Of a stretch of DNA of 64,000 nucleotides, positions 3,152-22,590 are shown in pieces. A model generated the notes under the pieces. The model was not told the origin of the DNA, searched no databases, and worked only from the letters and a program-made list of their open reading frames with translations. This DNA is from a virus. Its lineage: Duplodnaviria; Caudoviricetes. The translations under genes were made by a program, and so were the position numbers. Each line of letters starts with the position of its first letter. The stretch's first letter is position 1. Location: IMG/VR virus record IMGVR_UViG_3300002220_000740, positions 1 through 64,000 of that record; one strand, 5' to 3'.

Positions 3152-3397
3152 ATGCACCAAGAAACCGACGATCAATTCATGAGCCGTCTCAAACGTGAGG
3201 TACTGCTCATATTCCCTACAGTAAGGGTAAAGTTCCGCACAGCTACAACGCTGGACGGATCAAAGCAAATCAAAAGAGGCAAGTACTACGCCAAGCGAGT
3301 GATGACCGACGAGCCCTTTGCGGACCGGCTGTCCAAAGAAGAGGTGGAGTACATGCTGCAGAGCATCCCCAAATTAAATTTACTGAGACTCTCATGA
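3152..3397 (+). CDS. Hypothetical protein
   Basis: ATG after an AT-rich leader; stop overlaps next start (ATGA). Confidence 0.55.
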   Translation: MHQETDDQFMSRLKREVLLIFPTVRVKFRTATTLDGSKQIKRGKYYAKRVMTDEPFADRLSKEEVEYMLQSIPKLNLLRLS

Positions 3398-3735: not shown

Positions 3736-4380
3736 ATGGAACAGTTAGTAAAAATTACAGACAATGATGGCAAGAAGGCTGTCAGCGCAAAAGAACTTTA
3801 TGACGCCCTTGGGCTTGATAAGACCTCTTGGGCACGGTGGTATCGTAAGAATATCATTAACAATGAGTTTGCCATTGGTGGGGAAGATTGGACATATCTC
3901 GGCATCAAGCAGAGTAAGCCTCGTAATCAGGACTTTGTATTGACAATAGACTTTGCAAAGAAACTTGCCATGCTTACTCGTACCTCACAAGGGGATACGG
4001 TAAGGAAGTACTTTATTGAAATAGAAAAGTCATTCCTGCACAGGGATAATCCTCTTACACCGCTTGACCTGTTCAGAACTCAGATCAAGGTAATGGAGGC
4101 ACAGGAAACCAGGATCAAGGCGCTTGAGTCTGCTGTTACCGATCTTGCGATCAAGACTGCAACTCGCCCTGATTACTTTTCCATAGTGGGATATGCATCC
4201 AAGAACGGAGTAAACATCACTCTCAGGATGGCACAGTCACTGGGACTGAAAGCCCGAAACCTGTGCATTAAAAACAACATGCCCATTGACTCAGTTCCTG
4301 ACCCGAGGTTTGGAAGAGTAGGGCTGTACCCTGCCCTCATGCTGCAAGAAGCATTCATAAGTTCAGGGATCACTCTTTAA
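3736..4380 (+). CDS. AntA/AntB-family antirepressor
   Basis: VSAKELYDALG...WARW...LTIDFAKKLAML...GDTVRKYFIEIEK AntA signature; C-terminal VPDPRFGRV motif. Confidence 0.85.
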   Translation: MEQLVKITDNDGKKAVSAKELYDALGLDKTSWARWYRKNIINNEFAIGGEDWTYLGIKQSKPRNQDFVLTIDFAKKLAMLTRTSQGDTVRKYFIEIEKSFLHRDNPLTPLDLFRTQIKVMEAQETRIKALESAVTDLAIKTATRPDYFSIVGYASKNGVNITLRMAQSLGLKARNLCIKNNMPIDSVPDPRFGRVGLYPALMLQEAFISSGITL

Positions 4381-12901: not shown

Positions 12902-15829
12902 ATGGCAAAAATAGTTTTAGAAAAATTAGTTAAAGACAATCCAACAAGTTTGCCTGAGTTCTTCAAGAACTTGGATAAAGAAACCTTTGGAATTGACTGG
13001 AAGCTACACGAATACCAACAAACGGCACTCAAACACGCTTTGAATACGCTTTACTATTTCTATAACCAGAAAGATCATTTATCTAATCATTACCAATCTC
13101 AAACCAATGAAGATTGGAAACGAGAAATGAGTTATGCCAATGACAGCACTCATTTTGGTTTGCTTGGTCAATATTTTGAAATAGAAGACAATCAAATACC
13201 TTACACACAATTTTTGAATCGTGCCTCGCTTTGGATGGCAACAGGTTCTGGAAAAACATTGGTATTGATTAAACTCATTGAGTTTTTACATCAGTTAGCC
13301 ACTTTTAATTACATACCTAAAAACGACATATTAATTCTTGCTCCTAAACCTGAAATACTCAATCAGGTTAAAGAACATATTGTAGTTTTCAATAAAAACA
13401 GTTCTGTAAAAATTAATCTCAAAGATTTAAGAGAGTTTGAGAAATCAAAACACATTCAAACCTCACTCTATGAACCTGATGGTATCACAGTTTTTTATTA
13501 CCGAAGCGACAATATTACAGATGTCGATAAAACCGAGCAATTGAGTTATAAAACGGTTTTGAATAATGGGAAATGGTATGTACTACTTGATGAAGCACAC
13601 AAAGGCGATAAAGAAGACAGTATCCGTCAGGCTTATTACTCTATTTTAGCATCTAAAGGTTTTATTTTTAGTTTTTCCGCTACTTTCACTGATACAGTTG
13701 ATATTGTAACAACAGCCTATAATTTCAACTTAAAAAAATTCATAGAATCAGGTTATGGAAAGCATATTACTGTAAGTGGTCAAGAGTATAAAAATTGGAA
13801 CAAAAACAAAGGAGAGTTTTCTGAAACCGATAAAACGGAAATGGTTGTAAAATCTTTATTGGTACTAACAGCCATTAAGAAAGAAACTGCATTTATTAAA
13901 ACGCACCATCCCGGTTTATATCACAATCCTTTATTGATTACTATTGCAAACGAAGTAAATACAGTAGATGCAGAACTAAAACTATTTTTTAAGCAATTAG
14001 CTATTGTAGCATCAGGCAAATATGATATTGAAAAAGCAATTGAAGACTTAAGTACAGATTTGTTAATAAACAAAGCCTACCAATTCAATACTGCGGAAAT
14101 TCCTTCTTCGTTTATTCAAATTATTCAGAACATAAGTAAAGAAGATATATTAAAGTATGTTTTCAATGCTTCTGCATTTGGGAAAATAGAGTACACTCGA
14201 ATTTTAAATAATACCCGTGAAGTTGCTTTCAGATTAAAAACGGCAGAAGCAGGTCAGCATTTTTGTTTGTTAGTAGCATCAGATGCAACCAAATGGAGTG
14301 AAAATGTTTTAGAGAATTACGAATACACCGAAACTCCATTAACTAAATCGTATTTCAAGACAATCAATAGTCAAGAAAGTGACCTTAACATTTTGTTGGG
14401 TTCTAGAATTTTTACCGAAGGTTGGGATAGTAACCGTCCTAACGTAGTGAACTTTATCAATATTGGTGTTGATGAAGGTACACAGAAATTTGTTTTACAA
14501 GCAATTGGTCGCGGTGTACGAATTCAACCTGTGCCAGGCATTCGTAAACGTTTAGACTATATCGTTAATACAGAAGAAAGTGAAACACTTTCAAGATACA
14601 TTGATATCAAAGCAAAGGCGGAAATATTAAAAAGAAACTTGCCTCTAGAGAGTTTGTTCCTTTTTGCCACCAAGAAAGAAGTAATTAAAAATATTACTGA
14701 AAATTTAAGTAGAGAAAAAGATGCTGACGATTGGAAAACTGTGAAACACCTTTCAAGAACTAAAATTCCACAAGAATTACTTATTCCGAAATACGAAGAA
14801 GTAATTGCTGAAATTCCTGCTTATTCAATTAATAAAGAAGAATACAATGAATTAGTTGATTTTGTTGGAGCCGAAGCAGGTTCAAAAGACAAAATTGTAT
14901 TGATGCAAGCACCTATCAATGTTTCAAAAACCTTAGTTTCAGCTTTGGAAAAAATCAGAATTGAAGGTAATTTCAATTTCACAGTTTCCCATTCTAGTCG
15001 AAAACCAATTGACAATTTATTACTTCTTAATCACCACTTTCATCAAAAACCAAAACTTTTAAAGTCATTTGAACCTCTACTAACAGAAATCAATCACTTT
15101 GATAAAATTGAAGTTGCTTATCTTCCTGATAATGAACTTGGATTGTTAGAACAGGCGATTTTATCCTCCTTGAAAGGTAACAAGTCCGTATATAATTCTG
15201 TTGGTGATATTGTTGCTGCATATAATGCTAAAAAATTAAATGACCAACAACTTCAAGAACAACTTGACCTTTTTAATAATCAAGGAAAACCAAATACCTA
15301 CACTTACAACGGATTAAAAATTGAACTCAATACTGACTTTTTAGTAGAGCATTATTACAATCCGATTTTATTGACTTCAGAAGCACATAAACAACTTTTC
15401 AAACATATTATTTGGGTTCCTTCTGAAGTTGAGTTATTAAAGAAACTACACGATAATAGAGACAAGCTTGAAAAGTTTGAATGGTGGTATTTTTCTAAAA
15501 TTGACCAAACAACTGATGATGTTTCAATTCCTTACTACGACACAAGAGAACAAGAATACAGAAATTTTTTTCCTGACTTTGTTTTTTGGTTAAAAGCGAA
15601 ATACACTGACAAGTTAATTATTAAATTTATTGACCCTAAAGGAAATGTTGTTGGAACTGGAAACGCAGAAGATAAAGCTAAAGGTTACGAGAATATTTTC
15701 AATGACCACTCTATAAAATATAATAACAAAGAAGTACAAATAGACCTTTTCTTTTATAACGAACCGACTGGGGTTAACGAATCTGTTAAAGATTATTTTA
15801 CCAAGGACTTTAAAAAAATGTTTGAATAA
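12902..15829 (+). CDS. res: Type III R-M restriction subunit (Res)
   Basis: MATGSGKT, LDEAH, FSATF, EGWD, QAIGRGVR helicase motifs; C-terminal PDF...IDPKG nuclease. Confidence 0.9.
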   Translation: MAKIVLEKLVKDNPTSLPEFFKNLDKETFGIDWKLHEYQQTALKHALNTLYYFYNQKDHLSNHYQSQTNEDWKREMSYANDSTHFGLLGQYFEIEDNQIPYTQFLNRASLWMATGSGKTLVLIKLIEFLHQLATFNYIPKNDILILAPKPEILNQVKEHIVVFNKNSSVKINLKDLREFEKSKHIQTSLYEPDGITVFYYRSDNITDVDKTEQLSYKTVLNNGKWYVLLDEAHKGDKEDSIRQAYYSILASKGFIFSFSATFTDTVDIVTTAYNFNLKKFIESGYGKHITVSGQEYKNWNKNKGEFSETDKTEMVVKSLLVLTAIKKETAFIKTHHPGLYHNPLLITIANEVNTVDAELKLFFKQLAIVASGKYDIEKAIEDLSTDLLINKAYQFNTAEIPSSFIQIIQNISKEDILKYVFNASAFGKIEYTRILNNTREVAFRLKTAEAGQHFCLLVASDATKWSENVLENYEYTETPLTKSYFKTINSQESDLNILLGSRIFTEGWDSNRPNVVNFINIGVDEGTQKFVLQAIGRGVRIQPVPGIRKRLDYIVNTEESETLSRYIDIKAKAEILKRNLPLESLFLFATKKEVIKNITENLSREKDADDWKTVKHLSRTKIPQELLIPKYEEVIAEIPAYSINKEEYNELVDFVGAEAGSKDKIVLMQAPINVSKTLVSALEKIRIEGNFNFTVSHSSRKPIDNLLLLNHHFHQKPKLLKSFEPLLTEINHFDKIEVAYLPDNELGLLEQAILSSLKGNKSVYNSVGDIVAAYNAKKLNDQQLQEQLDLFNNQGKPNTYTYNGLKIELNTDFLVEHYYNPILLTSEAHKQLFKHIIWVPSEVELLKKLHDNRDKLEKFEWWYFSKIDQTTDDVSIPYYDTREQEYRNFFPDFVFWLKAKYTDKLIIKFIDPKGNVVGTGNAEDKAKGYENIFNDHSIKYNNKEVQIDLFFYNEPTGVNESVKDYFTKDFKKMFE

Positions 15830-17996: not shown

Positions 17997-18079
17997 GCGG
18001 AGTAGCAGAATTGGAATCTGTCATCAGTACGATCAGCTGGTGGGCACTTCGTGTTGGGGTTCGAGACCCTGACTCCGCG
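17997..18079 (+). tRNA. tRNA-like RNA with enlarged anticodon loop and variable arm
   Basis: GCGGAGT/ACTCCGC acceptor, CAGA/TCTG D stem, CATCAG/CTGGTG stem with 9-nt loop TACGATCAG, T loop TTCGAGA. Confidence 0.65.
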
Positions 18080-18431: not shown

Positions 18432-18998
18432 ATGAAAAAAGCAATTGTAACACTGAAGGGGATTTCCCCTTATTCACAAGGAAAAAATATCACAGAACCA
18501 AAATTACCAAAAGAACTCGCAGATGCTTATGAATTAAGAGTATGGCGTGAACGAATGCATGTAGATGAAAATGATAATGTCATTATCCCACCCATGCAAT
18601 TTGCAAATTCTCTTAAAGAAGCTGCAAAGTATCTATCTCTTCCTGTACCAGGAAAAGGTAAACAGCTATTTACCAAACATTTTGAATCAGGTGTAATGGT
18701 GTTGGATCCACTATCGCTTAAGATCAATAAAAAAGATGTACCATGTGAAGCTGTATTTGTACCAGCCAATGGACAAAGGGGTAGTGCCGCAAGAGTTATG
18801 AAATACTTTCCACTGTTCAAAGCAGGATGGGTTGGTGAAGTAACATATATCATTACAGATGATATTATTACTGAGGATATATTTCGTCAGGTACTTGAAG
18901 CGTGTGGAAGCTTAATAGGCATTGGAAGATTTCGTCCCAGGAACTGGGGCTATTATGGTCGTTTTGAAATAACTAAACTGAAATGGATAGAAAACTAA
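18432..18998 (+). CDS. Stand-alone RAMP (Cas7-like, Vipr-like) RNA-binding protein
   Basis: N-terminal strand VTLKGISP, IIPPMQFANSLKEAA (cf. RAMP 'IPGSSLKG' helix), C-terminal Gly-rich loop GIGRFRPRNWGYYGRF. Confidence 0.8.
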   Translation: MKKAIVTLKGISPYSQGKNITEPKLPKELADAYELRVWRERMHVDENDNVIIPPMQFANSLKEAAKYLSLPVPGKGKQLFTKHFESGVMVLDPLSLKINKKDVPCEAVFVPANGQRGSAARVMKYFPLFKAGWVGEVTYIITDDIITEDIFRQVLEACGSLIGIGRFRPRNWGYYGRFEITKLKWIEN

Positions 18999-19537
18999 AG
19001 CCAACCCTTACAATTCAAGAAGTTAGTGTTGAGACATTAACAATTGAAGCGTTCTTAAGCGAAGTAAAAGCTCCGGGATTAAAGTTATCCTACGAAGAGA
19101 TAAGCACAGCAACTGGTGTTACTCTTGATGTCAGAGGTAAAACATATCTTAGAACAGCTTTGAAAAGACTTAAAATTGAGTACCTGACTTATCGAAACTG
19201 GGGGATAGCTATGCCATCTAAGACAACAGCTATGAATGTTATTGATGATCGTATGCTTAAGACTCACAGAGCTGTGAAGAAGACACGCAGGGCTGAAGTT
19301 AATATTGGAACTGAGTTTCAAGGTAAATTCTCAAAACCAACTCAGGAAAGATTTGATAAATCAGTATACATCACATCTGAGCTTAATAAGACAATTTCCA
19401 AGCATCTTCGATCAAATAAAGCTAAAACGGTAAAACCCGTTAAATCACCCAGTCCTAAAGATTGTTTCCAATTTGAAGACACTAACAATAATTCGAAGTT
19501 CGTTGAATCGAAGCTCGTTGGAGCAGAGTTAGGTTAG
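18983..19537 (+). CDS. Basic accessory protein, wHTH-like, overlapping the RAMP gene
   Basis: LSYEEISTATG...LRTALKRL...YRNWGI resembles wHTH; Lys-rich; 3' end runs into the first pentamer tract. Confidence 0.6.
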   Translation: MDRKLKPTLTIQEVSVETLTIEAFLSEVKAPGLKLSYEEISTATGVTLDVRGKTYLRTALKRLKIEYLTYRNWGIAMPSKTTAMNVIDDRMLKTHRAVKKTRRAEVNIGTEFQGKFSKPTQERFDKSVYITSELNKTISKHLRSNKAKTVKPVKSPSPKDCFQFEDTNNNSKFVESKLVGAELG

Positions 19538-19571
19538 ATGCGTTACAGCGCGATAAATTCAAGTGAGGCAT
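19497..19571 (+). ncRNA. Pentamer-periodic tract 1 (15 x RDY-NN), putative guide RNA
   Basis: agt-tc gtt-ga atc-ga agc-tc gtt-gg agc-ag agt-ta ggt-ta gat-gc gtt-ac agc-gc gat-aa att-ca agt-ga ggc-at, then GGA. Confidence 0.8.
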
Positions 19572-19574
19572 GGA

Positions 19575-19620
19575 GCCAGTAGCACGTCGCTTTAGTGGAG
19601 TATAGCCACAACTGGTACTA
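19575..19620 (+). ncRNA. Mini tRNA-like spacer 1 (degenerate)
   Basis: GCCAGT/ACTGGT stem, inner AGC/GCT hairpin, GTGG-7nt-CCAC T-like arm, tail ACTA. Confidence 0.55.
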
Positions 19621-19623
19621 ATA

Positions 19624-19683
19624 AACACGATTAAGTTCGGTTTCGCACGATTAGTTTCAGTGGAGTGCGGTAAATTAAGGTAA
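19624..19683 (+). ncRNA. Pentamer-periodic tract 2 (12 units), putative guide RNA
   Basis: aac-ac gat-ta agt-tc ggt-tt cgc-ac gat-ta gtt-tc agt-gg agt-gc ggt-aa att-aa ggt-aa, then GGA. Confidence 0.8.
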
Positions 19684-19690
19684 GGATTTC

Positions 19691-19742
19691 GTTCAGGAAG
19701 GCTAATGGCTTGTAATAGGTTCGATTCCTATCCTGAACACAA
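19691..19742 (+). ncRNA. Mini tRNA-like spacer 2
   Basis: 7-bp GTTCAGG/CCTGAAC acceptor stacked on ATAGG-TTCGATT-CCTAT T arm; one small AGGC/GCTT hairpin; tail ACAA. Confidence 0.85.
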
Positions 19743-19749
19743 TATAAAC

Positions 19750-19839
19750 AATGTATTATAATGCAACCTCGTGTGTCAGAATAAAGTACAGTTCGTTTTC
19801 GTTCGTTCTGGTGCGATGTAGTAAAGTTTAGTAAAGCAA
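19750..19839 (+). ncRNA. Pentamer-periodic tract 3 (18 units), putative guide RNA
   Basis: aat-gt att-at aat-gc aac-ct cgt-gt gtc-ag aat-aa agt-ac agt-tc gtt-tt cgt-tc gtt-ct ggt-gc gat-gt agt-aa agt-tt agt-aa agc-aa, then GGA. Confidence 0.8.
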
Positions 19840-19846
19840 GGATTAC

Positions 19847-19891
19847 ACCCAGGAAAGAGATCAGTAGGTTTGACTCCTACCCTGGGTACAA
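19847..19891 (+). ncRNA. Mini tRNA-like spacer 3
   Basis: 7-bp ACCCAGG/CCTGGGT acceptor, GTAGG-TTTGACT-CCTAC T arm, only a 10-nt linker, tail ACAA. Confidence 0.85.
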
Positions 19892-19898
19892 TTAAACT

Positions 19899-19963
19899 AA
19901 TCGGTTTAGTTATAGCAGAACGTGCTTCGGTTTAGTTTAGCTCGGTGAAATAAGGTAAGGTAA
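19899..19963 (+). ncRNA. Pentamer-periodic tract 4 (13 units), putative guide RNA
   Basis: aat-cg gtt-ta gtt-at agc-ag aac-gt gct-tc ggt-tt agt-tt agc-tc ggt-ga aat-aa ggt-aa ggt-aa, then a T-run. Confidence 0.8.
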
Positions 19964-19983
19964 TTTTTATTTAAAATCAAATT

Positions 19984-21129
19984 ATGATAACACTTCTTAA
20001 AATAGACAGTGCGGACAAGATCCGCGTTATCAACCTTGAGCCTACTGATAGTGGGATCAAGCGTACAGCCGGTGTATATGGTGGCAACCTGGTTGAGACA
20101 TTCACACCATGCAGCCCCAAGAACATTGGCAAATCCAACGAAACCAGGCTATCAGACCAGATAGCATCAGAGATTATCTCTACTGTAAATGAGAAATGCA
20201 ACGAAGGTTATGTTTGTATTCCTGTATCATTTGATGAAGGTGCCTCTGAAGCAGATATTCGTAAGTATATCAAGGAAAATGCTACAGCAGCTCCCCAGGC
20301 AATGCTTGCTAAGCAATATGAAGAAAAATACGCCGACTTTAAGAATGGTGTGCTTTGCAGCCCCAAGCTTGATGGACAGCGCTGTATGGCTGTTGTGCCT
20401 AAGAGTGGAGACATTATACTCTGGTCACGCGGGGGTAAGCAAATCGAGACAATGGGTCATATAGTAAGAGATCTTGAAATCCTTCGAGACAATGGATTTG
20501 TAGGTACCCTTGATGGAGAACTGTATTACCATGACAAGGGCGCTGAGAACTTCCAGGATATCATGAAAGCAATCAAGAAGTATCGTCCGGGAACGTCGGA
20601 AGACGTACAGTACTGGGTATATGATATCATCTCATTAACCGGAACTGCTCAGGACAGAGCTTTTGCATATGGTGTAGCTATCCATGGCTGTAATCTTACT
20701 CATATTCATGTAGTGCCTCAATTTATGGTACATTCAAAGAGAATAGCAGATGACTTTCACGAAGAAAATCTTGCTCAAGGCTACGAAGGAACAATGCTGA
20801 AGAACGCACTATCCCTATACCAGCCTGACAAACGGTCGTCAGATCTGCTCAAGCTAAAAGATTTTCAGGATGCAGAGTATCAAATTGTGGATATTGTGCC
20901 TATGGAACGTATGCCAGAGTGTGGAAAGGTTGTTTGCAACAGGATGTATGATGATGGTACATTCAAAACATTCACAGCTACACCCAAGGCAAGCTATGCT
21001 GATCGCAAAGAACTCCTGGATAACAAGAAAGATTACATTGGCAAGATGGCTACAATACAGTATTTCAGCCTGACTGATGATGGACTACCAAGGTTCCCAG
21101 TGATGAAAAGCATTCGTGAGGATATATAA
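19984..21129 (+). CDS. ATP-dependent DNA ligase
   Basis: SPKLDGQR (motif I), LDGELY, YEGTMLK, LLKLKDF, PRFPV. Confidence 0.95.
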   Translation: MITLLKIDSADKIRVINLEPTDSGIKRTAGVYGGNLVETFTPCSPKNIGKSNETRLSDQIASEIISTVNEKCNEGYVCIPVSFDEGASEADIRKYIKENATAAPQAMLAKQYEEKYADFKNGVLCSPKLDGQRCMAVVPKSGDIILWSRGGKQIETMGHIVRDLEILRDNGFVGTLDGELYYHDKGAENFQDIMKAIKKYRPGTSEDVQYWVYDIISLTGTAQDRAFAYGVAIHGCNLTHIHVVPQFMVHSKRIADDFHEENLAQGYEGTMLKNALSLYQPDKRSSDLLKLKDFQDAEYQIVDIVPMERMPECGKVVCNRMYDDGTFKTFTATPKASYADRKELLDNKKDYIGKMATIQYFSLTDDGLPRFPVMKSIREDI

Positions 21130-21131
21130 GC

Positions 21132-21200
21132 GGAGTGCAGCTCGCGGACGAGAGTAACTTGTGCGCACAAGTGGACGGTGGTTTGAATCCATTCACTCCA
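21132..21200 (+). tRNA. tRNA-like/pseudo-tRNA with palindromic anticodon arm
   Basis: GGAGTG/CACTCC acceptor, GGTGG-TTTGAAT-CCATT T arm; anticodon arm is the perfect palindrome ACTTGTGCGCACAAGT. Confidence 0.55.
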
Positions 21201-21207
21201 ATCAAAG

Positions 21208-21283
21208 TAGAATGTAGCTCAGTTGGTGAGAGCAAGGGGTCTTAAACTCAGAGGTCGCAGGTTCGAATCCTGTCATTCTACCA
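21208..21283 (+). tRNA. tRNA with weak anticodon stem; positional anticodon TTA
   Basis: TAGAATG/CATTCTA, GCTC/GAGC D arm, AGGTC variable loop, GCAGG-TTCGAAT-CCTGT; loop TCTTAAA. Confidence 0.75.
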
Positions 21284-21284
21284 A

Positions 21285-21622
21285 ATCATTTTCGTTGACA
21301 CAATTAGTAACGCTACTCAGGACGCGGCTTCGACGCCGCCACCTCCACCAATAGTTTCTGGACTTAAACCAGATGGTGGACCCGCTGATTGTCTTCAGAT
21401 CAGCCCCTGTGTTGAGCTCACGTTAAAAAGCTCATCTCATAAGGGGGTGTAATGGATTTGACTGGTAGTCAGTATGAATTGCCGAGAAGATGATCTGCCT
21501 ATAAACGGCAAATTTTCAATCGCATCTGAAGGAAGGGTTGTTCCGATGACCCGTCAGCAGCTGAAAGCTGTTGCCTAAAGCGTTTCCGGTAGCTCCGGAT
21601 CGGGGAGTACGACAACTCCCCT
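21285..21622 (+). ncRNA. ssrA: Circularly permuted (two-piece) tmRNA
   Basis: Acceptor piece ending CACCTCCACCA (21350) precedes the 5' piece GGGGGTGTAATGGATTTGAC (21443). G3-U70 pair present. Tag ORF at 21507-21578 after ATAAAC. Confidence 0.85.
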
Positions 21623-21706
21623 CTCATCACACCCCTTGCTTATCTCCGAATGCACGCATGCAAACGCTATGAGAAGCAAGGGGTTTTCTATGCCTATCCA
21701 TAAACT

Positions 21707-21976
21707 ATGAATACATTCAGCAAACCCAAGGAAGCCATCACGAAAATCGTGAAGGTAATTGCAAGCTGCACAACCGAGCAACAGATGCTGACAGCTTACA
21801 ACATGATCCAAAACTTCAACAGAACTGCCGCTTATAACGGCGTGATAAACACTGATGAAGTTGCCTCGTATCTACGAGGTGCTTACGATCTCCAGGAACT
21901 TAAACTCTGGAAGGTCAGCCCGCAAGTCGGGGATTTATTGTGCGAAGAAATTCAAACAGAACATTCTGTTGTATAA
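21707..21976 (+). CDS. Hypothetical protein
   Basis: 89-aa ORF with an AT-rich leader. Confidence 0.6.
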   Translation: MNTFSKPKEAITKIVKVIASCTTEQQMLTAYNMIQNFNRTAAYNGVINTDEVASYLRGAYDLQELKLWKVSPQVGDLLCEEIQTEHSVV

Positions 21977-22059
21977 CAAGAAAAAGAGTTTATCAAAAGA
22001 ATTTAATCAGCATTTAATATTGTTAAACCCAACTATTATTTTAATTTTACACTACAATC

Positions 22060-22590
22060 ATGGAAAAAAGTTTCGTAACAGTGGTCGGTATATCCGACAT
22101 GAGGCAGGACAAGAATGGTAACGATTTTCGTACCATCACAGTTCAGAATCCTGTATTTCAGACAGTCGTCGATGAAGCATCAGGCGATGTAAGAACTGAG
22201 CTTACCCCAGCTCTGAAGGGGACAAGGAGTGCATATGAGGAATCTTACCTTGACGGCACCAAAGACTGGCTTGCCAATGCACAGGTAGGTCACATCATCG
22301 CAGGCAGGGTTGAGAAACGTGCTGTTGAACAGTACGATTTCATTGGCAAGGATGGTAGTGCTCGCATTGCATCATCGTACACATGCCCTGTGTTCGGTGA
22401 CACAACCCAGGAAAGCTGGGAGAGTGTGGTGAAAACTGCATTCCGCAACAGCGGTCATCCGCTTCCGGGCGATACAACTGCAAAGAAGTCGGAAGCTACG
22501 GCTGAAGCTCCTGCAGAAGCACCTCGCGTTGACATAACCGCAGGCGTTACTGCTCCTTCATCGAAGAAAGCAGTTGTTCAGGAGTTCTAA
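22060..22590 (+). CDS. Hypothetical protein, possibly ssDNA-binding (OB-like)
   Basis: Beta-rich N-terminus, low-complexity Ala/Pro tail, followed by a terminator hairpin at 22603-22626. Confidence 0.55.
   Translation: MEKSFVTVVGISDMRQDKNGNDFRTITVQNPVFQTVVDEASGDVRTELTPALKGTRSAYEESYLDGTKDWLANAQVGHIIAGRVEKRAVEQYDFIGKDGSARIASSYTCPVFGDTTQESWESVVKTAFRNSGHPLPGDTTAKKSEATAEAPAEAPRVDITAGVTAPSSKKAVVQEF

Follow-up and report, generated by a model that had tools for sequence, protein, structure and literature searches.

In a phage VIPR locus, tracts of five-base guide units are separated by small elements with the anatomy of the acceptor/T-arm half of a tRNA, and elements of the same design stand directly behind guide tracts in other, distant Vipr loci. 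We infer that the guides are transcribed as polycistronic precursors and that RNase P and RNase Z cut these precursors at the minihelices, the cutting having a probability that we put at roughly 55%. VIPR, a silencing system related to CRISPR, was described only in 2026. The locus lies in the window, the 64,000-nucleotide stretch analysed here, with which a complete IMG/VR phage record of 92,245 bp begins.

A VIPR locus with four guide tracts

VIPR systems are composed of a Vipr RAMP protein, a vap partner and vrRNAs in which a fixed trinucleotide alternates with two variable bases, NN (10.64898/2026.04.26.720920). The vrRNAs read double-stranded DNA by a one-base-skip rule and silence competing mobile elements, and VIPR has been proposed to be ancestral to the CRISPR RAMPs (10.64898/2026.04.26.720920). 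Motifs other than GGY are found among vrRNAs, such as GAC/NN and WGT/NN (10.64898/2026.10.21.760802).

The vipr gene of the window (18432–18998, + strand) encodes a 188-aa, single-RRM RAMP protein with the C-terminal G-loop GIGRFRPRNWGYYGRF. Its 1113 homologues are 55–68% identical, and the C-terminal motif GIGRFRPRN.GYYGRF is invariant among them; no Pfam domain was found in the product of 18432–18998. The AF2 model (pLDDT 89.6) displays an RRM-type fold whose last helix and last strand have a glycine-rich loop between them, and the top Foldseek matches of this model are Cas7 of type VII and Csm3 of type III (E 2e-8 to 1e-5). By tblastn it is 25.8% identical to the gene that occupies the Vipr position in a SUSP1-like Ounavirinae phage. 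The protein fits the definition of a Vipr, a Cas7-related, single-RRM RAMP with a G-loop and a thumb.

Beside vipr lies the gene that corresponds to vap (18983–19537, +). This vap-like accessory gene encodes 184 aa, and its last codons overlap the start of the first guide tract. Its syntenic counterpart, at 37% identity, is the gene that follows vipr in another sampled locus (L083). The window's gene has no Pfam match, and a single-protein query of IMG/VR returned no relatives. Further upstream, 12902–15829 (+) encodes a 975-aa protein of the ResIII/DEAD helicase type.

Between the end of the 184-aa gene (19537) and the start of an ATP-dependent DNA ligase gene (19984) are 446 nt without an open reading frame, and a blastn search with positions 19500–20000 found no match among GenBank phages. 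Most of the guide array lies here, on the same strand as the adjoining vipr gene, as tandem pentamers of a fixed trinucleotide and variable NN. Tract 1 (19498–19569, +), which was compared with the arrays of related loci, has about 14 pentamers and ends in AAGTGAGGC; its first eight pentamers (19498–19537) overlap the last codons of the vap-like gene. Tract 2 (19633–19685, +) is preceded by the leader TAATAAAC (19619–19626) and ends in AAGGTAAGG, and tract 3 (19789–19841, +) ends in AAAGCAAGG. Tract 4 (19900–19967, +), with the leader AATTAAAC (19890–19897), ends in AAGGTAAGG followed by a T-run, and no separator stands between it and the ligase gene. In a T...G phase count, the pentamer tracts gave the strongest T...G period-5 signal across the whole 92-kb genome.

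The locus is thus a VIPR system, in which a Vipr RAMP protein and its vap partner are accompanied by four vrRNAs of five-base units. The initial annotation had described a guide array. The array is real, its tracts being VIPR vrRNAs, but neither it nor its gapped dinucleotide code is new: both had already been published in the 2026 preprints.

Minihelices between the tracts

Three elements, E1, E2 and E3, lie between the four tracts, in agreement with the original proposal that elements of 45–52 nt separate them. E2 (19691–19742, +) reads GTTCAGG, a 17-nt linker, ATAGG TTCGATT CCTAT and CCTGAAC; its pairing extends to 19738, the discriminator A is at 19739 and the ACAA tail reaches 19742. E3 (19847–19891, +) reads ACCCAGG, a 10-nt linker, GTAGG TTTGACT CCTAC and CCTGGGT, with pairing to 19887, the discriminator A at 19888 and the tail to 19891. 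In both, an acceptor stem of 7 perfect base pairs is stacked on a 5-bp T stem that closes a 7-nt T loop, and an A-CAA tail follows. The 12 stacked base pairs include the G53:C61 pair, the T loop follows the consensus U54 U55 Y56 R57 A58, and the discriminator is unpaired; these are the features that define minihelices and t-elements. Direct reading and a pattern scan therefore bear out the anatomy first described for both elements, including the T loops TTCGATT and TTTGACT and the ACAA tail. The description of the D and anticodon arms as replaced also holds, by the 17-nt linker in E2, which can fold as a short hairpin of 4–5 bp, and by the 10-nt linker in E3.

E2 and E3 are 78% identical. They had been said to differ in sequence yet keep their pairing, and we find four compensatory pairs between them, at acceptor pairs 1–3 and at one pair of the T stem. 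The pattern scan for stacked 7-bp and 5-bp helices with a 7-nt loop gave 7 matches in 128 kb (both strands), among which only E2 and E3 carry the T-loop consensus together with a shared ACAAT tail. A chance origin of the two elements was rejected. Compared with shuffled sequences, E2 has a z-score of −3.8 and E3 of −2.2, and in both the tRNA-like fold lies about 1 kcal/mol above the minimum free energy (MFE). With the Rfam tRNA model, E2 reaches 25.3 bits (E 0.039), short of the gathering score of 29, in an alignment that covers the full length of the element but deletes the D and anticodon regions.

Several other identities were considered for E2 and E3. Canonical tRNAs were rejected, as the cloverleaf is absent, ARAGORN makes no call on either element and the Rfam score is below threshold. 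Ala-type minihelices were rejected for want of a G3:U70 pair. Hammerheads were likewise rejected, since Rfam (E up to 10, 18500–22500) detected no ribozyme and no self-cleaving core between the tracts. None of the elements in the window encodes CCA, and the base at position −1 is C in both E2 and E3. An exact 21-mer of E2 has no match in IMG/VR, and two contigs that encode an identical Vipr (L162 and L163) are identical across the region and add no variation.

E1 (19575–19620, +) is degenerate. It has a 6-bp acceptor stem with one G-U pair, a 3-bp hairpin, and a 4-bp stem with a 1-nt bulge and the non-canonical 7-nt loop AGTATAG, and in loop, stem and bulge it departs from the minihelix pattern. 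Both covariance models missed it. E1 aligns colinearly with E2 and E3, and the alignment continues into the flanks, with an AAG.NAGG handle upstream and AAT.AAAC downstream. The initial annotation had assigned it the same layout as the other two, and the colinearity supports this, although the fold is not significant when taken alone, being no better than those of shuffled sequences (z −1.06). The alignment suggests that E1 is probably a decayed paralogue of E2 and E3.

Other structured RNAs lie in the vicinity. Positions 17997–18079 (+), 15 nt upstream of the 110-aa ORF before vipr, fold into a cloverleaf (z −2.3) that has a T arm, an extra variable arm and an anticodon stem of 7 bp; it is called by neither ARAGORN nor Rfam (E up to 1). 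A tRNA with the anticodon tta, which would read TAA, occupies 21208–21281 (+; 53.6 bits) and has the trailer C-CAA. It is followed immediately by a permuted two-piece tmRNA (21290–21565, +; 66.9 bits).

Recurrence in other Vipr loci

Our sample comprised 187 loci that encode a Vipr homologue, drawn from IMG/VR, JGI metagenomes and GTDB genomes, or 188 with the window's own. A lag-5 periodicity scan found five-base arrays in 169 of the 188, the window's included, and perfect GTCNN, GACNN, GTTNN and GGCNN arrays flank vipr on the same strand in sampled loci. The family arrays each end in ..AAG..AAGG, often followed by a T-run, and most family vrRNAs have an unstructured end of AAGG and a U-run.

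A covariance model built from E2 and E3 only was run over the Vipr loci together with a pattern scan. A covariance model from homologous loci had been proposed as a check, and the model from E2 and E3 recovered array-linked elements in three other loci. The best non-self matches of the E2+E3 model are L252:2350–2391 (18 bits), L216:1869–1919 (16 bits) and L328:3785–3825 (15 bits). The L216 element is identical in L217, and L252, a Polyangiales MAG, has a second, weaker copy at 2496–2537. L328, whose Vipr is 50% identical to that of the window, was the only one to pass a filter for an upstream array among the IMG/VR pattern matches listed, which were mostly ordinary tRNAs. The elements of L216, L252 and L328 each begin 4–8 nt 3' of the AAGG or AAGC end of a tract and lie ahead of a further tract or of vipr. 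In three of the elements from other loci, the MFE structure is the tRNA-like fold itself. Weak matches of the second covariance model in L196/L100, L259 and L261 lie off arrays or antisense and were set aside as chance. The Rfam tRNA model gave no match to the L216 and L252 elements (E up to 1) or to the L328 element (E up to 5).

In the model-based alignment of five sequences, 10 of the 12 pairs change on both sides, all cells pair and G53:C61 is invariant, a count that is partly circular, as the elements were found by searches that reward pairing. None of 500 shuffles reached these values, and slid controls pair at about 40%. Model-based alignments were used throughout, MAFFT having misaligned the L216 element. 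The position of the elements relative to the tracts is evidence independent of pairing. Perfect T-arm motifs number 19 in the 1.74 Mb of the 188 Vipr loci (both strands), and six of these 19 lie directly 3' of tracts, while ARAGORN finds only two tRNAs across all 188 loci.

In a tree of 159 distinct Viprs, the four Viprs that carry minihelices are not neighbours: their distances are 1.19–1.68, the median being 1.09. The loci of their closest relatives have separators of other kinds. This placement suggests that the minihelix was gained repeatedly. The design is rare, occurring in 3 of the 188 sampled family loci and, by pattern, in L328. Eighty ligase-based loci were uninformative for the element.

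The same evidence bears on whether the minihelices could be remnants of tRNA genes, either internally deleted or left as recombination scars, with no role in vrRNA biogenesis. Such an origin would draw on the tta tRNA, the permuted tmRNA and the cloverleaf found near the array, on the decayed appearance of E1, and on a complete tRNA-Met beside the vrRNAs of L147. In that locus the tRNA-Met (L147:4812–4890) stands just downstream of the last vrRNA, behind a promoter-like TTGACA. Remnants are hard to reconcile with helices that are perfect in both E2 and E3 and kept so by compensatory changes, or with the same precise truncation, the loss of the D and anticodon arms, in four loci distant from one another, each time 4–8 nt after a tract. 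E2 and E3 also do not match the arms of the phage's own tRNA. We therefore regard a remnant origin as very unlikely.

Separators of other kinds were also seen. The order after successive tracts is hairpin, minihelix, hairpin, none in L328, and hairpin, minihelix in L216. The hairpin tails of L328 (3670–3700 and 3893–3925) have the conserved loops UGUGAAAG and UGUGAAAA, and those of L164 (555–600 and 685–720) share the loop GGUCAAAC within the locus. In L186 (880–1300 and 2620–2689), tracts are separated by GC-rich elements of about 55–60 nt with UUCAC...CCGUGA(C/G)GG motifs; these match no Rfam family and may be an undescribed structured separator or ribozyme. In L110, an identical, unstructured 19-nt spacer, TTCTTACACAATACGATCT, joins adjacent tracts three times (2530–2548, 3270–3288 and 3945–3963) and may be a nuclease site. 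Searches of L186, L328, L110 and L123 with Rfam gave no ribozyme.

These tails raise the question of whether the minihelices stay on the mature vrRNA as structural 3' tails, acting as an exonuclease cap or as an end mark for the Vipr filament, as the type II tail may do. Type II vrRNAs have a conserved structured tail of about 40 nt 3' of the repeats that co-purifies with Vipr (10.64898/2026.04.26.720920), and the type II tail is seen in a SUSP1-like phage (L271). The plain hairpins in the equivalent place in L328, L216 and L164 imply that the position may need only a structure of some kind, and the similarity of E2 to E3 also favors retention. Capping alone, however, would require neither a T-loop consensus, nor an invariant G53:C61 pair, nor an exact, covarying 7+5-bp stack in four lineages, and with a 5' leader such a stack should be cut by RNase P in the cell anyway. 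Moreover, the last tract of each array is uncapped, and the unstructured ends of most family vrRNAs speak against a required tail. Together, these points make retention, the main alternative to cutting, rather unlikely.

Proposed processing and relation to known systems

The acceptor/T-arm stack is the part of a tRNA that is recognised by RNase P, RNase Z and the CCA-adding enzyme, and acceptor/T-arm minihelices are classical substrates of the bacterial forms of these enzymes. In the reading that we favor, E2, E3 and probably the decayed E1 would act as mimics of the top half of a tRNA for the tRNA-maturation enzymes of the host. E1 is separated from tract 2, and E3 from tract 4, by only 11–15 nt. 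This leaves no room for a promoter in either gap, so at least tracts 1 and 2, and tracts 3 and 4, must share a transcript. A promoter-like site at 19734–19762 (+; TGAACA, 17 nt, TATAAT; 10/12, a consensus match only) lies across the end of E2, from where a second transcript could begin ahead of tract 3; the count of promoter-like sites in the region is not above that in shuffled sequence. The vrRNAs would thus probably be made as one or two polycistronic precursors, the first by read-through from vipr–vap.

The predicted RNase P cuts fall at the 5' ends of the minihelices, 19690|19691 for E2 and 19846|19847 for E3, and would leave the upstream vrRNA with its AAGG handle and 4–5 nt. RNase Z, or RNase E together with exonucleases, would cut after the discriminator, predicted at 19739 in E2 and 19888 in E3, and free the AAAC-containing leader of the next vrRNA. 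Across the carrier loci, the predicted RNase P cut would leave AAGG and 4–8 mostly U-rich nucleotides, which resembles the ordinary ends of family vrRNAs. The genuine tRNA of the phage (21208–21281) has the same N-CAA trailer as E2 and E3. The context fits processing by tRNA enzymes, given a VIPR system without Cas6, the precedent of hammerheads, the short gaps and the recurrence in three Vipr lineages that are unrelated. The self-cleaving hammerheads that hold the equivalent position in other VIPR types show that guides do need to be cut apart.

Several observations count against cutting. In E2 and E3 the tRNA-like fold is not the MFE structure, CCA is not encoded and base −1 is C. E1 holds an equivalent position without the T-loop consensus, as do plain hairpins after other tracts in L328 and L216. 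The design is rare, and the Rfam tRNA model is sub-threshold on E2 and silent on the elements of L216, L252 and L328. Considering the family as a whole, we see an even chance that some VIPR guide maturation has been handed to the host tRNA machinery through acceptor/T-arm mimics of several independent origins.

Minihelices are also substrates of the CCA-adding enzyme and of some synthetases, and the released mini-tRNAs might have a function of their own, as decoys for tRNA-directed host enzymes or defences or as CCA-tagged or charged minihelices, with the array serving as a convenient means of expression. Phages often carry tRNA-like RNAs, and the present phage invests in translation-related RNAs. 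The elements of the four loci nevertheless have no anticodon arm, no G3:U70 and no identity element in common, and their sole constant is the position after a vrRNA tract, which makes an independent function highly improbable.

If host tRNA enzymes do cut the array, guide biogenesis would need no dedicated nuclease such as Cas6 and would rely on universal enzymes of the host. The locus would then represent a polycistronic tRNA-guide array of natural origin, adding a third way of processing to the staggered and the ribozyme-interspersed arrays, and evolution would have arrived at the same design as engineers who express multiplexed guides. A separator of 41–51 nt would also be compact enough for synthetic VIPR or CRISPR arrays. 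Minihelices mark the boundaries of vrRNAs, which can aid the annotation of arrays.

In engineered polycistronic tRNA-gRNA arrays, endogenous RNase P and RNase Z free the guides from one transcript, and in Haloferax, Cas6-independent crRNAs flanked by t-elements are reportedly released by the same two enzymes. Those constructs are man-made and mostly use full tRNAs, whereas the elements described here are natural, minimal mimics of the top half. Natural tRNA-like processing signals are also known, among them the t-elements of plant mitochondria, MALAT1 mascRNA, the tRNA-miRNA RNAs of MHV68 and the tRNA punctuation of mitochondrial transcripts. They share with the present elements an acceptor/T-arm mimic that sets the 3' end of the upstream RNA through RNase P, but they come from eukaryotes or organelles, and none is known to serve an RNA-guided RAMP system.

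Among VIPR systems, the closest parallel is provided by the hammerhead-interspersed vrRNA arrays of types I and V (fig. S19, 10.64898/2026.04.26.720920), in which a structured cleavage module likewise stands between adjacent vrRNAs of a polycistronic array. The module there cleaves itself, while the one proposed here would recruit host RNase P and RNase Z. The type II vrRNA tail of the SUSP1 clade, a hairpin with a pseudoknot, is similarly a structure of about 40–50 nt directly 3' of a tract. Its sequence and fold, compared in the SUSP1-like phage vB_SflM_004 (L271), are unrelated to those of E2 and E3, and the tails of L271 (GGGTAGTTAGTCTCAGCTAC... type) have no counterpart in the window. The type II tail is invariant and retained, whereas helices of the E2/E3 type covary and keep the hallmarks of tRNA.

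The locus as a whole resembles published VIPR systems in its lone G-loop RAMP, the adjacent small vap gene, same-strand five-base arrays of about 10–16 units per tract, the conserved 3' end of each tract and its residence in a phage. It differs in that the repeats are degenerate YNNRG or GT(T)NN and not GGY/NN. The designs described so far comprise type II pseudoknot-tailed arrays, staggered overlapping arrays, hammerhead-interspersed arrays and single vrRNAs (10.64898/2026.04.26.720920). The terms "tRNA" and RNase P are absent from the full text of the VIPR preprint, the cryo-EM companion and the satellite-competition paper, and "tRNA-like" from that of the VIPR language-model survey. Tracts separated by tRNA-like minihelices are an architecture that the VIPR papers do not list, and as separators of vrRNA arrays such elements appear to be new.
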